In this document: positions 11,942 to 31,673 of the stretch, one piece after another
Position numbering within the stretch: the stretch's first letter is position 1
How the letters are laid out: each line of letters begins with the position of its first letter
Assembly: GCA_025061115.1 (NCBI GenBank)
Contig: JANZKC010000001.1
Coordinates: forward strand, 779,366 to 843,365
From: Candidatus Culexmicrobium cathedralense
GTDB lineage: Archaea; Thermoproteota; Methanomethylicia; Culexarchaeales; Culexmicrobiaceae
Reading direction: 5' to 3'
DNA length: 64,000 bases
Notes under the pieces: generated by a model
Databases searched by the model: none
Told to the model about the DNA's origin: nothing
What the model saw: only the letters and a program-made list of their open reading frames with translations
Made by a program: the position numbers and the translations under genes

Positions 11942-12070
11942 GTGCACCGCCAGCACGCCCCTTTCCCGGTGCCTCTCGGACACCAGTACTCAGGCGCGCG
12001 GCAGTGGGCTTGACTTCCGGGTTCGGAATGAGTCCGGGTATTTCCCCACTGCCTATGGCCGGCGGTGCAC
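11942..12070 (-). rRNA. rrf: 5S rRNA (not linked to 16S/23S)
   Basis: GGCCATAG, ACCCGGACTCATTCCGAACCCGGAAGTCAAG, AGTACTG and CCGGGAA segments; terminal helix GTGCACCGCC/GGCGGTGCAC. Confidence 0.95.
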
Positions 12071-12185: not shown

Positions 12186-12297
12186 GCCGGGGTCGCCTAG
12201 CCTGGTTAGGGCGCCGGACTCATAATCTAAGCGATATAGGGGACCAGACATAGGTGGAATCCGGTTTTCGCGGGTTCGAAGCCCGCCCCCGGCACCA
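12186..12297 (+). tRNA. tRNA-Met(CAT), elongator, with 34-nt anticodon-loop intron; CCA encoded
   Basis: GCCGGGG acceptor, CCGGA-CTCATAA-TCCGG anticodon arm after splicing, GGTTCGAA T-loop. Confidence 0.9.
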
Positions 12298-16317: not shown

Positions 16318-16471
16318 GGGACCCCCTTTAGGGGGCAGCATGCCGTAGCTCAGCAAGGTAGAGCGGCGGGCTCCAGAGCGCATAGGTAGAATTTGACCGG
16401 AAGGGATGATGTAGCTCTGGAGCGCGGGAGCAACCCGTTGGTCGTGGGTTCAAGTCCCACCGGCCCCACCA
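16318..16471 (+). tRNA. tRNA-Trp(CCA) with two introns (3/4: 16321-16341; 37/38: 16377-16432); CCA encoded
   Basis: Removing both introns restores the GGGGCCG/CGGCCCC acceptor and GCGGG-CTCCAGA-CCCGT arm; BHB motifs at both junctions. Confidence 0.88.
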
Positions 16472-17344: not shown

Positions 17345-17437
17345 TGGAGCCCCGGGCGGGATTTGAACCCGCGACCAACGGCTTACGAGGCTCGGCGCCA
17401 AAGGCTCCGCCGCTCTGCCGGACTGAGCTACCGGGGC
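17345..17437 (-). tRNA. tRNA-Thr(CGT) with 16-nt intron at 30/31 (17391-17406); CCA encoded
   Basis: Strict BHB GAG-CGGC-GGA-GCC-ttt-GGC-GCCG-AGC-CTC; spliced arm GCGGC-CTCGTAA-GCCGT. Confidence 0.9.
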
Positions 17438-26941: not shown

Positions 26942-27035
26942 TGGTGGGGCCGCGGAGATTTGAACTCCGGTCACGGGGACCCATTGGGGGAACAGCGTTC
27001 TAACCCCGCAGCCTTCCAGGCTAGCCTACGGCCCC
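26942..27035 (-). tRNA. tRNA-Pro(TGG) with 18-nt intron at 33/34 (26984-27001); CCA encoded
   Basis: GGGG-TTA-GAAC-gct-GTTC-CCCC-AAT relaxed BHB; spliced arm CGGGG-TTTGGGT-CCCCG. Confidence 0.88.
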
Positions 27036-27165: not shown

Positions 27166-27876
27166 ATGTCAATTGAAGAAGAATTAGCTAGGAAAATTGC
27201 TGGAGAAATAGTCCTCTCAGATAGACCTTGGATAACTATGAAAAAGTGGAGAGAATTATTTAATATTACGCAAGTCGAATTGGCTGGCGAAATGAATATC
27301 TCTCCATCGGTAATCAGCGATTATGAAGGGGGTAGGCGACGCTCTCCAGGAGCTAAGTTCGTTAAGCGATTCGTAGAAGCAATAATAAGTATAGACAAAA
27401 ATCGCGGAAGCCCAGTGTTAAGAGAATTTTCCAGAATTATGAGCATGCCTACTGAAGCAATTTTAGATATGAAAGAATTCTCTGAGGCAGTATCTATCAA
27501 AAGGCTCTGCCAAGTAATTAATGCAGAAATCATCGCTTGTTCACATTTAGGTGAAAGAAAGATTTTCGGATATACGGTCGTTGACAGCATAAGGTGCATT
27601 GAAACTCTTTCAGGGGCAGATTTCATGAAGCTCATGGGCACTACTTCCATGAGAGCATTAATATTCACAAAGGTTTCAAGAGGAAGGTCGCCAATGGTGG
27701 CTGTTAGAGTGAATCCAATAAAGCCAGCAGCAGTAATTATTCACGGAACAGATAAGGTCGACTCTTTAGCCATAAAGCTAGCTAGAATAGAGCAAATTCC
27801 ACTAGCAGTTTCTCGCATGCCCACTATTGAAAAACTCCTTCAAGCCTTGAAAAGCTTTAGCTTGAGCATAGAATAA
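27166..27876 (+). CDS. Xre-HTH transcriptional regulator (COG1709-like)
   Basis: IAGEIVLS, WRELF, SVISDYE.GRR.SPG, GYTVVDS, RALIFT.V..GRSPMVA. Confidence 0.88.
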   Translation: MSIEEELARKIAGEIVLSDRPWITMKKWRELFNITQVELAGEMNISPSVISDYEGGRRRSPGAKFVKRFVEAIISIDKNRGSPVLREFSRIMSMPTEAILDMKEFSEAVSIKRLCQVINAEIIACSHLGERKIFGYTVVDSIRCIETLSGADFMKLMGTTSMRALIFTKVSRGRSPMVAVRVNPIKPAAVIIHGTDKVDSLAIKLARIEQIPLAVSRMPTIEKLLQALKSFSLSIE

Positions 27877-27928
27877 AACAAAATGGTAAAAATAGATATA
27901 TAGCAATAATTGTAGTAGGGGGTAGTTT

Positions 27929-30175
27929 ACGCACTGTTCAAGGTTTTCCACTGAAAAAATATTAGGAGCCCTGTCCAACAGCACCAGAATCGAAATCCTC
28001 AAGAAGTTAAGTAGAAGCGATGAGCTGAGCTTCACCGAGTTAATGCAAGAACTCAACATGTCTCCTCGCAGCGACGCGGGAAAATTTGGCTATCATCTGA
28101 AGACGCTCGTCGAATCCGGGCTCGTGTCGACCGTTCCTGCTTCAGGGAAATATGCGCTTACAGATATTGGAAAAATCATGGCCGAGCTCATTTGGGAAAT
28201 TGAAGAAATTAGCAGGAAGAAATCTAAGCGCATGCTTGTTAGAACCTCAAGTTTAACCATGGAGCCATTTGAGAGAAGAAAAATCGTTGAAGCATTAATA
28301 CGTGAAGCAAATGCTCCTAGAAGAATAGCGGAAGCCATAGCCAAAGAAGCTGAGGAGAGGCTTTTAAAGCTCGAAATAAGCTATTTGACTGCACCCCTAA
28401 TCAGAGAGTTTGTGAATGCAATATTGCTGGAGCAAGGGTTAGAGGATTATCGGCACTCAATGACAAGACTGGGTTTGCCGGTCTATGATGTAGAGAAGCT
28501 ACTTGAAGAAGAACATTACATCCCAACTTTTCCAGACAAAGTGCATGCAGCAACGGGAGACGCAGTAATGAGCGAATATGCTTTAATCAAGCAGCTTCCA
28601 AGGAGAGTGTCTGATGCACATTTAGCCGGTATGATACATATATGCAATACCAATTATTGGATGCTTCGTCCAGCTACAATTCATCATGATCTGTCATTTT
28701 TCTTGAAGAAAGGTTTTGAAGTGAGAGACGCAGGTCTAACGCTTGCATTTAGCGGTCCACCTAAAAGCCTTCGAGCTGCACTTCTCTTTGCAATTAGGCT
28801 TGCCCATCTAATGCAGAGCAATTTGGCGGTAGGTCAGTTAATAGATAACGTAAACTACATATTAGCTCCATACGCGTCAAACTTGAAGATAGAGGAAATG
28901 AAAAAGGCAGTTCGTGAAGCACTATTATATTTAAATCAAACTCTGACTTCAAGAGGAAGTGTAGTTCCACTTGCATTTGGCTTAACGGTATCTCCACCAA
29001 AGTACATTGAAGAAAATTATAATGACTACATAGATGAAGCCATATCCTTATTCAAGGCGATTTTACAGGCAATGTACGAAGGAGACTTCGCAAAAAAACC
29101 GTTCATCAGCCCACTCCCCATAATTAAGATTTGCGGAAGAATGTTAAGCGGAAAAGAAGATTATGAAGAAATTTTGGAGGAAGTTTGTAAGCTAACTTCA
29201 AAGTGGGCTACACCTTACTTCATAAACTTGAATGCTGAATGGCAAACCAGAGAAGTAAGTTATGGGTGGGATTTATCAAGGTTAGAGGCAAAGAAGAGTG
29301 AAGATGCAAAGTATCTATTGACGCAGACTGGGTGCTTAGATACTGTTATCATAAATTTGCCGAGAATTGCTTTAGAGGCAAATGGTGATGATGAAGAATT
29401 CTTCTCAAAACTTAAAGGTTCGATCTCTCTTGCTGTGGAAACACTGAATGCTAAACGCGAGTCAATTGATAAACAACTGGAGAAGGGGCATCTATCGCTC
29501 CTGAACATACAGTCGGGAGGAGTACCATACTACCATCTGGAAAATACTACCTGCAATATCGGCTATATAGGGATGCCCGAGGCTGTAAAAATTCACGTTG
29601 GAACATGGGTACATGAAGATGTTAATGCGCTATCATTTGCTGAAAAAATCGTGGATTTCATGTTAAGAGAAATAAGAAAGAGGAGAGGACGCTGGACAAT
29701 AACTTGCATATCTCTTGAAAACGCGAGTGAAAGGCTCTTAAGAACAGACATTGCGAGATTTGGTCTTAAAAGAGTTCAGGAGGAGGTTGGTGGAGAGCTT
29801 CATTACACCCACAATATGCACGTACCAATGCACGCGCAAGTGCCGCTTAGTAGGAGAATAGCCATTGAAAGCAGATTTCAAAAGAAACTTAATGGGGGAC
29901 ATGGCTTAAACATATATCTTCGAGAGCCCATGCCAGATGCAGATTACCTCATAAAATGCCTGAGAAGCATTGCAACACGTACAGATTTAGGAGCCTTTAC
30001 ACTCACTAGGGACTGGACGTACTGTAAATGGTGTGGGAAATTATTCGGCGGCTTTCAAGAGAAATGCCTAAATTGTGGAAGATCTTTGAAGAATATAATA
30101 CATTACACCAAGATGGTAAATGTATATGAAGTTTTGATTGAAAGACGCATTAGAAGAGTGAAATATGCAATCTAA
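27929..30175 (+). CDS. ArsR-type HTH + ATP-cone + inactive class III RNR (NrdD)-like fusion protein
   Basis: Frame is open back to 27926 (ALSNSTRIEILKKL...FTEL...GKFGYHL); ATP cone VRTS...EPFERRKI; NrdD-like DAHLAG.IH, INLPRIA and Zn ribbon; no RxxGY motif. Confidence 0.8.
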   Translation, partial: THCSRFSTEKILGALSNSTRIEILKKLSRSDELSFTELMQELNMSPRSDAGKFGYHLKTLVESGLVSTVPASGKYALTDIGKIMAELIWEIEEISRKKSKRMLVRTSSLTMEPFERRKIVEALIREANAPRRIAEAIAKEAEERLLKLEISYLTAPLIREFVNAILLEQGLEDYRHSMTRLGLPVYDVEKLLEEEHYIPTFPDKVHAATGDAVMSEYALIKQLPRRVSDAHLAGMIHICNTNYWMLRPATIHHDLSFFLKKGFEVRDAGLTLAFSGPPKSLRAALLFAIRLAHLMQSNLAVGQLIDNVNYILAPYASNLKIEEMKKAVREALLYLNQTLTSRGSVVPLAFGLTVSPPKYIEENYNDYIDEAISLFKAILQAMYEGDFAKKPFISPLPIIKICGRMLSGKEDYEEILEEVCKLTSKWATPYFINLNAEWQTREVSYGWDLSRLEAKKSEDAKYLLTQTGCLDTVIINLPRIALEANGDDEEFFSKLKGSISLAVETLNAKRESIDKQLEKGHLSLLNIQSGGVPYYHLENTTCNIGYIGMPEAVKIHVGTWVHEDVNALSFAEKIVDFMLREIRKRRGRWTITCISLENASERLLRTDIARFGLKRVQEEVGGELHYTHNMHVPMHAQVPLSRRIAIESRFQKKLNGGHGLNIYLREPMPDADYLIKCLRSIATRTDLGAFTLTRDWTYCKWCGKLFGGFQEKCLNCGRSLKNIIHYTKMVNVYEVLIERRIRRVKYAI

Positions 30176-30177
30176 AT

Positions 30178-31176
<999 letters not shown>

Positions 31177-31181
31177 TCAAG

Positions 31182-31673
31182 TTGAAAGTTTTAGTGGGCG
31201 GCAAAGTGAAGAAAGAGGAGTTACGCATACAGAAAATCAAGTGTGGCACTGTAATTGATCACATAGCTGCTGGCCATGCACTTAGTGTGTTAAAAATACT
31301 CAACATAACAGGGCGCGAAGGTTACATAGTCAGCATAGCCATGAATGTGCCCAGCAAAAAGTTTGGGAAGAAAGACATAGTGAAAGTTGAAGGTCGAGAA
31401 TTAAAGGAGGAGGAAGTTAACAAGATAGCGTTAATCGCACCTACAGCTACGATAAACATAATTGAAAACTATAAGGTCATAAAAAAGAACAGAATAAGGC
31501 TGCCAAATAAAATTGAGGGCATAATTAAGTGCAGAAATCCAATGTGCATAACAAACAGCGCAAGAGAGCCTGTCACGCCGAAATTCATAGTTATTGACAG
31601 AAAGCCTTTAAGGTTGCGCTGTGAATATTGCGGAACGATCCTAGAAACAGAAGATATTGTGAAGCAGTTTTAA
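31182..31673 (+). CDS. pyrI: Aspartate carbamoyltransferase regulatory subunit
   Basis: GTVIDHI, KKDIVKVE, CRNPMC, RCEYC. Confidence 0.95.
   Translation: MKVLVGGKVKKEELRIQKIKCGTVIDHIAAGHALSVLKILNITGREGYIVSIAMNVPSKKFGKKDIVKVEGRELKEEEVNKIALIAPTATINIIENYKVIKKNRIRLPNKIEGIIKCRNPMCITNSAREPVTPKFIVIDRKPLRLRCEYCGTILETEDIVKQF

Follow-up and report, generated by a model that had tools for sequence, protein, structure and literature searches.

What does a protein do when it keeps the fold of a class III ribonucleotide reductase (RNR), has lost the residues that perform the reaction, and begins with a DNA-binding domain? This question is raised by a gene of Candidatus Culexmicrobium cathedralense located at 27929..30175 (+) in a 64,000-nucleotide stretch of contig JANZKC010000001.1 (assembly GCA_025061115.1, positions 779,366 to 843,365 of the forward strand), which we call the window and whose numbering is used throughout. 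The gene encodes 748 amino acids and a stop codon, and Pfam matches, alignments, a structural model and fold matches divide its product into a winged helix-turn-helix (wHTH), an ATP-cone and a dead NrdD barrel. A first-pass annotation had read it from the DNA letters as a possible archaeal analogue of the bacterial regulator NrdR. We find that the protein is a paralogue of NrdD without catalytic function: every residue required for radical chemistry and for holding the substrate triphosphate has been lost, and its ArsR-like winged helix and ATP-cone are intact and strongly conserved. From sequence comparison we think it rather likely that the gene encodes an NrdR-like, ATP-cone-based transcription regulator of RNR genes that arose from a dead class III RNR.

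A class III reductase fold without catalytic residues

The reading frame is open from 27926 to 30175 (+), follows a TAG stop at 27923-27925, and runs through 748 codons with no in-frame stop before its stop codon at 30173-30175. Pfam places DUF7347 at residues 10–86 of the translation (27956..28186, +; 41.2 bits, cut-off 27.6), with further matches to HTH_5, the ArsR family (residues 17–67; 34.9 bits, cut-off 22), and HTH_20 (29.6 bits, cut-off 27), and the recognition-helix motif of this wHTH, DAGKFGYHL, lies at 28073-28099 (+). A divergent ATP-cone follows at residues 102–174 (28232..28450, +), where PF03477 scores 30.6 bits against a gathering cut-off of 25.8 over positions 1–75 of its 88-position profile (32.5 bits in a whole-genome scan), and its LVRTSS hairpin is at 28235-28252 (+). 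The barrel occupies residues 202–723 (28532..30097, +) with an NRDD score of 277.1 bits, or 277.9 in the genome scan versus 495.7 for an active copy elsewhere in the genome. The NCBIfam NrdD equivalog TIGR02487 scores 255.5 bits, under its cut-off of 326.35, and the NCBIfam ArsR metalloregulator model scores 35.2, under its cut-off of 55. A Zn ribbon of the form CxxC...CxxC is retained at residues 699–716 (30023..30076, +), with C699, C702, C713 and C716 invariant.

An AlphaFold model built on 52 relatives has a mean predicted local distance difference test score (pLDDT) of 88.4 and shows the ten-stranded barrel with C-terminal Zn ribbon of class III RNR. Its best Foldseek neighbors are class III RNRs from S. 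thermophilus, P. copri, T. maritima and phage T4 (9d3x, 9dca, 8p2c, 4coj, and 1hk8; E 1e-26 to 1e-20), with other glycyl-radical enzymes ranking far behind (E ~1e-7). The domain order of wHTH, ATP-cone, NrdD-like barrel and Zn ribbon read by the first-pass annotation is thus borne out by Pfam, the fold and the cysteines.

Motifs were checked against the genome's own active NrdD, to which the window protein is 29% identical, against solved NrdDs through HMMER alignments, and against 119 relatives. Three substitutions that had been read directly from the sequence hold under these alignments. YTKMVNVY (residues 726–733; 30104..30127, +), a degenerate glycyl-radical loop, aligns to RVTGYY and puts Asn731 at the radical Gly, and the test motif R-x-x-G-Y reads K-M-V-N-V. 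The finger loop GWDLSR (residues 446–451; 29264..29281, +) has D-L-S-R at the motif and no Cys; the thiyl-radical Cys, which is the third residue of MGCR/MCCR (10.1101/2022.04.23.489257), is lost, and the Arg of that motif, R451, is kept. Finally, RPAT (residues 247–250; 28667..28678, +) aligns to RPFC at the place of RPxC, making the beta-A Cys (C125 in T. maritima) Thr250. Two further losses had not been noted before: HxHD is replaced by HICN (residues 237–240; 28637..28648, +), and there is no NxN flap. HxHD and the phosphate loop hold the substrate triphosphate (PMC11226230, PMC4493059).

The same residues are missing throughout the family. Among 120 members, the radical Gly position holds G in 59, A in 30, N in 18 and S in 8, and the Tyr that should follow is found in three. 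The beta-A Cys and the second His of HxHD occur in none and the HxHD Asp in 15; a Cys precedes the finger-loop Arg in 7, and that Arg is present in all 120, as is the Zn ribbon. The helix motif was found by strict pattern in 115 of the 120. We also read 52 family members at the columns where 13 active archaeal NrdDs are at least 92% conserved. The flap (ENAN) is lost, along with two residues of HxHD (its second His and its Asp), the beta-A Cys, the double Cys, the Gly-Tyr pair, three loop-2 residues and the TPAE phosphate loop. What is kept comprises cone residues V104, R105, I119, R175 and R180, all shared with active archaeal NrdDs, together with the LAP motif, N433, NLP (476–478), the GG pair and the Zn-ribbon cysteines. 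Winged-helix residues G51, F53 and H56 are invariant in the 52, and so are barrel residues N433, N476, P478, R451 and G656-G657-H658. These 52 proteins form a clade apart from the 13 active enzymes with support 1.0 (FastTree; few active enzymes were sampled).

The family therefore resembles solved class III NrdDs (8p23, 9d3x, 4coi, and 1hk8) in its fold, its front ATP-cone, its end Zn ribbon and its NLPR, LAP and GG motifs. It differs from them in lacking the radical Gly-Tyr, the thiyl Cys, the beta-A Cys, HxHD, the NxN flap, a conserved loop 2 and the TPAE phosphate loop, in scoring under the equivalog cut-off, in occurring in genomes without an activase neighbor, and in having gained a winged helix. 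Sequence comparison clearly points to descent from an archaeal NrdD with the same VRTS-type cone.

Loss of catalysis could mean that the gene is a functionless relic of a duplicated nrdD, and both the missing catalytic residues and a full-length frame without a standard start codon would suit that explanation. It is scarcely credible, however, and already contradicted by conservation data, which include the uninterrupted 748 codons, the many invariant columns and the presence of the family in 585 or more species genomes. Measured against an orthologue of 82% identity, the ratio of nonsynonymous to synonymous substitution rates (dN/dS) is ~0.05 for the whole gene, ~0.03 for the helix and ~0.06 for the barrel (dS saturated), and the low value includes the 38 codons before the first ATG. 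These rates indicate a gene under strong purifying selection, not a decaying copy.

The same selection on the barrel, together with a set of polar residues invariant in 52 members, would also be expected if the protein were still an enzyme, with a new non-radical activity in a remodeled barrel and a DNA-binding domain for self-regulation. Bifunctional proteins of this kind exist, PutA and BirA being examples. We consider such an activity improbable here, as no new conserved constellation of catalytic-type residues is seen, the phosphate-binding loop, HxHD and flap are lost, and the barrel is down to roughly 300 residues in some lineages.

The ATP-cone as predicted sensor

A regulator derived from an RNR could have inherited several allosteric sites, and the first-pass annotation had supposed that these sites are reused to read nucleotide pools. 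That part of the proposal survives for the cone only. The cone hairpin reads V-R-T-S in place of KRDG, so that of the two basic residues only the first remains, Thr replacing the second. The last cone helix is about seven residues shorter than in the genome's canonical cones and has no aromatic stretch. According to PMC11226230, the basic K-R pair in the beta-hairpin and the aromatic/basic last helix hold the nucleotide or nucleotides. The same divergent form is present in a subset of active archaeal NrdDs; the family cone appears to be derived from the cone of a working enzyme and is predicted to bind nucleotide. Elsewhere in the protein, the family shows no conservation of loop 2, of the Gln position of the specificity site (T. 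maritima Q161), or of the phosphate-binding loop, HxHD and flap; the position of T. maritima Gln210 is Gln in the window protein. Because loop 2 and the Gln161 position are unconserved, sensing is expected to run through the cone only, as the likely sole sensor, with the barrel as a scaffold.

The other half of a sensor-regulator is a domain that contacts DNA. A separate model of the N-terminal part has a pLDDT of 73.9 overall and above 90 in the helix. Its best structural neighbor is an NrdR chain (9a6n_B, E 1.1e-3), and it next overlays CadC, CzrA, HlyU, NolR and QsrR, with target-normalized template-modeling scores of 0.62–0.79; the E-values of these overlays are all weak (1e-3 to 1e-2), and the NolR and QsrR entries are DNA-bound. 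Compared with ArsR/SmtB repressors, the wHTH superposes with a root-mean-square deviation of ~2–3.5 Å over 84–99 columns at 20–32% identity. The modeled fold is ArsR/SmtB-like, and DNA binding is predicted from it. The likeness to CadC, CzrA, HlyU, NolR and QsrR thus covers the winged-helix fold and the HTH_5 and HTH_20 matches above their cut-offs; unlike those proteins, the window protein would sense through an ATP-cone and a dead enzyme and not through a metal or thiol site.

These features suggest a mechanism analogous to that of NrdR, in which the ATP or deoxy-ATP (dATP) state of the cone sets the oligomeric state and this in turn sets DNA binding (PMC9110341, PMC12176259). We hypothesize that the cone of the window protein binds ATP or dATP, as in RNRs and bacterial NrdR, that the barrel acts as a dimer or oligomer scaffold, and that the nucleotide state governs the way in which the pair of winged helices faces an operator. 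The cell would then transcribe the RNR genes that it has, be they of class III or class II, in step with the dATP/ATP balance, and perhaps the regulator's own gene as well. A homodimer prediction with two copies of residues 225–720 gave a median score of 0.27 against a mark of 0.42, which counts neither way.

The parallel with NrdR is one of function and not of descent. Both join a DNA-binding domain to an ATP-cone, both are encoded near RNR genes in some genomes, and the predicted logic of cone state, oligomer and DNA binding is alike. NrdR, however, is a protein of ~150 amino acids with an N-terminal Zn ribbon followed by the ATP-cone, whereas the window protein has an N-terminal ArsR-type wHTH, a divergent NrdD-type cone and a dead RNR barrel of ~550 residues. 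It has no match to TIGR00244 and is not homologous to NrdR as a whole, so it is a functional analogue at most. Another parallel in design is NrtR, where a Nudix-like domain, a catalytically weakened or dead enzyme domain of the pathway, reads a metabolite of that pathway and steers the wHTH fused to it; NrtR differs in enzyme family, ligand and domain of life.

Variation within the family indicates which parts matter. A protein search returned 764 matches at E ≤ 1e-10, the best 120 of which are 691–799 amino acids long and nearly all have the DUF7347/HTH, ATP-cone and NRDD architecture, and in contigs from one genome per species at least 585 of 598 pattern matches encode relatives. Source labels include Methanomethylicia/Verstraetearchaeota, Nitrososphaeria, Bathyarchaeia, Lokiarchaeia, Helarchaeota, Freyarchaeota, Jordarchaeum and Njordarchaeum, among others. 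Of 151 genomes sampled from the window's phylum, 107 have a match to a profile of helix plus cone (E ≤ 1e-20), which in one of them (G133) covers only the cone; the frames with these matches range from ~790 down to 535 codons. Four shorter family frames of 529–699 amino acids were examined, and helix, cone and linker are kept in all four. The 699-residue frame (G001) lacks the Gly loop and keeps the Zn ribbon; frames of 602 (G017, L109) and 529 residues (G009, L110) have no Zn ribbon and a much reduced barrel, and NLPR is gone as well from the shortest. Several genomes with reduced members give no Pfam NRDD match. Helix and cone are thus the constant parts of the family, with a barrel that erodes in some lineages.

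The 699-residue member shares 94% identity with a protein recorded at NCBI under Candidatus Nitrosotenuis aquarius, and all 20 sampled genomes of that family group carry the helix-plus-cone module with only weak NRDD matches (E 1e-14 to 1e-23). We take the Nitrosotenuis-named relatives to be aerobic ammonia oxidizers, and in an aerobic lifestyle a glycyl-radical RNR would not work.

A search for proteins made of helix and cone only gave 47 short matches, the majority of which sit on short contigs and are probably truncated genes. Two (P0125, 201 amino acids on a 1-Mb contig; P0122, 189 amino acids on a 32-kb contig) may be stand-alone forms or split genes.

Gene neighborhoods and the likely targets

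If the protein is a regulator, its gene neighborhoods may indicate what it regulates. Eighty loci were fetched and analyzed with a simple open reading frame (ORF) caller and BLASTP clustering; the family gene was callable in 77, which with the window gives 78, and many loci stop at contig ends, so neighbor counts are lower bounds. A true nrdD lies directly downstream on the same strand in 12 of the 78, mostly in Bathyarchaeia. Two of these 12 genes were scored, at 495 and 643 bits, and are true NrdDs, and a glutaredoxin gene (grx) was called between the family gene and nrdD in six. A class II RNR neighbor was found in none of the 80 fetched loci. Our survey of the phylum, in turn, included four genomes fetched for having no NRDD match above 244 bits, and in three of these (97–100% complete) the next gene on the strand of the family gene, after ~150 bp, encodes a class II RNR. 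A same-strand position before two unrelated classes of RNR points to RNR genes as the likely targets.

Being an NrdD paralogue often encoded beside grx-nrdD, the protein might instead be a non-catalytic partner subunit of active NrdD, or of its activase or reductant, that modulates the enzyme directly and for which the winged helix would matter less. Regulation of an active enzyme by a pseudoenzyme paralogue has precedent. Yet the gene also occurs where active NrdD does not, both in the three genomes that pair it with class II RNR and in the Nitrosotenuis-related group, where all 20 sampled genomes have it and none has a strong NrdD match. This speaks against an obligate role as partner. The winged helix is, moreover, among the best conserved parts. 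We judge a partner subunit to be improbable.

The commonest neighbor is neither RNR, and it was the one that the first-pass annotation had singled out. In the window, pyrB (30178..31101, −) lies tail to tail with the gene, with 2 nt between the stop codons (30173-30180), and pyrI (31182..31673, +) is divergent from pyrB. Across the family, pyrB is found in 33 of 78 loci, directly convergent in 21, and pyrI in 21; in 17 of the 21 directly adjacent pairs the gap is −6 to 48 nt, and the 3′ ends of the transcripts probably overlap at such short distances. This pairing, the invariance of the barrel residues listed above in a protein that does no catalysis, and the absence of an RNR neighbor from most loci would all fit a DNA-binding regulator with another signal or other targets, such as a metabolite in the old barrel cavity, pyrBI, or a wider gene set. 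We regard that as unlikely. Convergent genes have no common promoter, and nrdD, with or without grx, stands between the family gene and pyrB in six loci, so that the adjacency is best read as a remnant of an old nrd-pyr neighborhood. In distant members the barrel shrinks and loses NLPR and the Zn ribbon but the cone stays, and the same-strand position upstream of two RNR classes points to RNR genes. The adjacency to pyr genes is real but gives no support to pyr genes as targets.

The preferred interpretation, a regulator of RNR genes, presupposes active RNRs in the genome, and two are encoded. Class III is represented by an NRDD match of 495.7 bits and 754 amino acids, with the motifs RVTGYY, QCCAY (finger loop), RPFC, HIHD and ENAN (flap). 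It is preceded by a 90-residue CPRC glutaredoxin-like gene and adjoined by nrdG, a radical S-adenosylmethionine (SAM) activase scoring 140.9 bits on TIGR02495 (cut-off 131.15). This is the sole match in the genome above that cut-off and lies ~350 kb from the window gene, so that, as had been claimed, no activase gene is nearby; among the 80 fetched loci, the search for an NrdG neighbor gave only one weak radical-SAM match. Four cones are encoded in the genome, namely those of the class II RNR (95.8 bits, canonical VIKRDGR), a small stand-alone cone protein, the active NrdD and the window gene. NrdR itself (TIGR00244) has no match in this genome, which is 99.99% complete.

Two of these genes have features of their own. 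The class II RNR (contig C1, ~491.5–497.7 kb; L011, L013, L014, and L100) is one open frame of 2100 codons in which a canonical ATP-cone precedes three separate segments of Pfam match, an arrangement that inserted inteins would be expected to give, and a second partial class II match is on contig C11 (L012). The stand-alone cone protein (L101; C1, ~150.09–150.30 kb) has ~86 amino acids, a VVKRNGR hairpin and a score of 44 bits, its gene is preceded by a very AT-rich region, and it is another possible nucleotide sensor in the same genome.

Regulation of these genes would require operators, and two candidates emerged as weak leads. An expectation-maximization search of 61 regions upstream of the family gene found CTCTAATTTTTTAAAC ~50 nt before the start. 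Scanned over both strands of 1.04 Mb, it gave 27 matches of at least 15 bits, 21 of them just upstream of the family gene, one upstream of a true nrdD and one in an intergenic region shared with a divergent gene. TACAGAATTTTATAC, two TATAC words 12 nt apart, gave eight matches with at most one mismatch, all just downstream of the family gene (L029, L032, L036, L046, L055, L061, L072, and L076). Seven of the eight are followed by a called grx or nrdD at a distance of 86–235 nt; in the eighth, L036, the contig stops before another gene. Look-alikes of both motifs occur in the class II RNR promoter regions of the three genomes in which the family gene precedes a class II RNR gene, and TACATTTTTTTATAC words, related to TACAGAATTTTATAC, precede the class II RNR gene in L105 and L106.

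A search of the 61 upstream regions for palindromic dyads with arms of 4–5 nt and spacings of 0–14 nt yielded only an AT-rich TTTA-N11-TAAA (9 versus 1.1 expected), which was not used. Scans of the own genome gave no derivable regulon. The conserved upstream 17-mer with at most four mismatches has hundreds of matches there, none at nrd or pyr genes, and TACA-N3-TTTT-N-TAC with at most one mismatch has 41, none near nrdD, the class II RNR, pyr or the window gene.

Several observations weigh against a cone-based regulator of RNR genes. First, with a Thr in its hairpin and a last helix without an aromatic stretch, the cone may not bind ATP or dATP like known cones, and with loop 2, the Q161 position and the substrate site unconserved, a read-out of nucleoside or deoxynucleoside triphosphates (dNTPs) outside the cone is unlikely. 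Second, Gly is retained at the radical position in the 59 members counted above. Third, most of the 78 loci have no RNR neighbor, and in its own genome distances of ~350 kb and ~310 kb separate the gene from nrdD and from the class II RNR gene, respectively. Fourth, CTCTAATTTTTTAAAC was trained on the same upstream regions in which it was then found, the upstream motifs overlap a TATA-like sequence, and no operator common to the gene, nrdD and the class II RNR was found in the own genome. Finally, no RNA runs containing the gene are listed.

The start codon, the wider family and other features of the window

The coordinates proposed by the first-pass annotation hold for the open frame, but the codon at 27929 is ACG, which is not a standard start. 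The first in-frame ATG, GTG or TTG is the ATG at 28043, where the ORF lister begins a 710-residue protein because none of these codons lies further upstream in frame; a start there would remove the first 38 residues of the winged helix, with helices 1 and 2. Two metagenome contigs whose proteins are 82–89% identical (L095 and L097) have the same layout of TAG, one variable codon and a conserved ACG (27929..27931, + in the window), and in neither of them nor in the window does an ATG, GTG or TTG occur between the TAG stop and the internal ATG. Codons 1–38 differ from L095 at 17 synonymous and 6 nonsynonymous positions, which indicates that they are translated. The letters at the start site are the same in contigs assembled from two other runs, and a 59%-identical orthologue (L015) has a normal ATG at the equivalent place. 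ACG at 27929 is the likely start on these comparisons. A Shine-Dalgarno-like run, GGGGGT (27918..27923, +), stands 5 nt before the ACG and is conserved in the two related contigs; we infer that it is the ribosome-binding site. A conserved ACG behind such a run would hold the protein at a low amount in this lineage.

Upstream, a 236-residue HTH_3 protein (27166..27876, +; Pfam) ends 50 nt before the gene and is possibly co-transcribed with it. It consists of an N-terminal HTH_3 domain and an unassigned C-terminal part of ~160 residues, and a comparison with solved structures gave only a weak match to a 70-residue chain. Its family is just upstream or three genes upstream in 14 of the 78 loci; in Methanomethylicia, a trio of 3-hydroxy-3-methylglutaryl-CoA (HMG-CoA) synthase, thiolase and DUF35 genes lies between it and the family gene.

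To our knowledge, the transcriptional control of dNTP synthesis in archaea is largely open, and a widespread, strongly conserved candidate regulator bears on it. NrdR is described as a bacterial protein found in only some archaea (PMC9110341). We advance, tentatively and with slightly less than even confidence, the proposal that in this family archaea have their missing counterpart of NrdR. It would be a master switch for the dNTP supply, conserved across Bathyarchaeia, Methanomethylicia, Asgard archaea and ammonia oxidizers, and would read dATP/ATP by its divergent cone, directly control the RNR class present in each cell, and be kept scarce by the ACG start in the lineage of the window. Members near cultured ammonia oxidizers make the question testable. 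Full-text literature searches found no description of the family or its architecture; the supplements of ammonia-oxidizer genome papers, which may list the gene, lay outside that search.

Most relatives are named "anaerobic ribonucleoside-triphosphate reductase" in public records, which on our analysis would be a systematic annotation error, and metabolic reconstructions that take the family as evidence of anaerobic dNTP synthesis, even in known aerobes, would be wrong. The family would also exemplify clearly how a radical enzyme can be turned into a sensor, with a series from full barrel to stump that shows which parts matter.

The window also holds RNA features apart from these genes. Between pheT and the HTH_3 gene, ARAGORN reports a 94-nt "tRNA-???" with a two-letter anticodon at 26942-27035 (−), where Rfam finds nothing at its gathering score. 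Rfam tRNAs at 12186-12294 (109 nt), 16342-16464 (123 nt) and 17348-17437 (90 nt) probably bear introns, the first two of them being missed by ARAGORN, and a 5S rRNA lies at 11945-12066.

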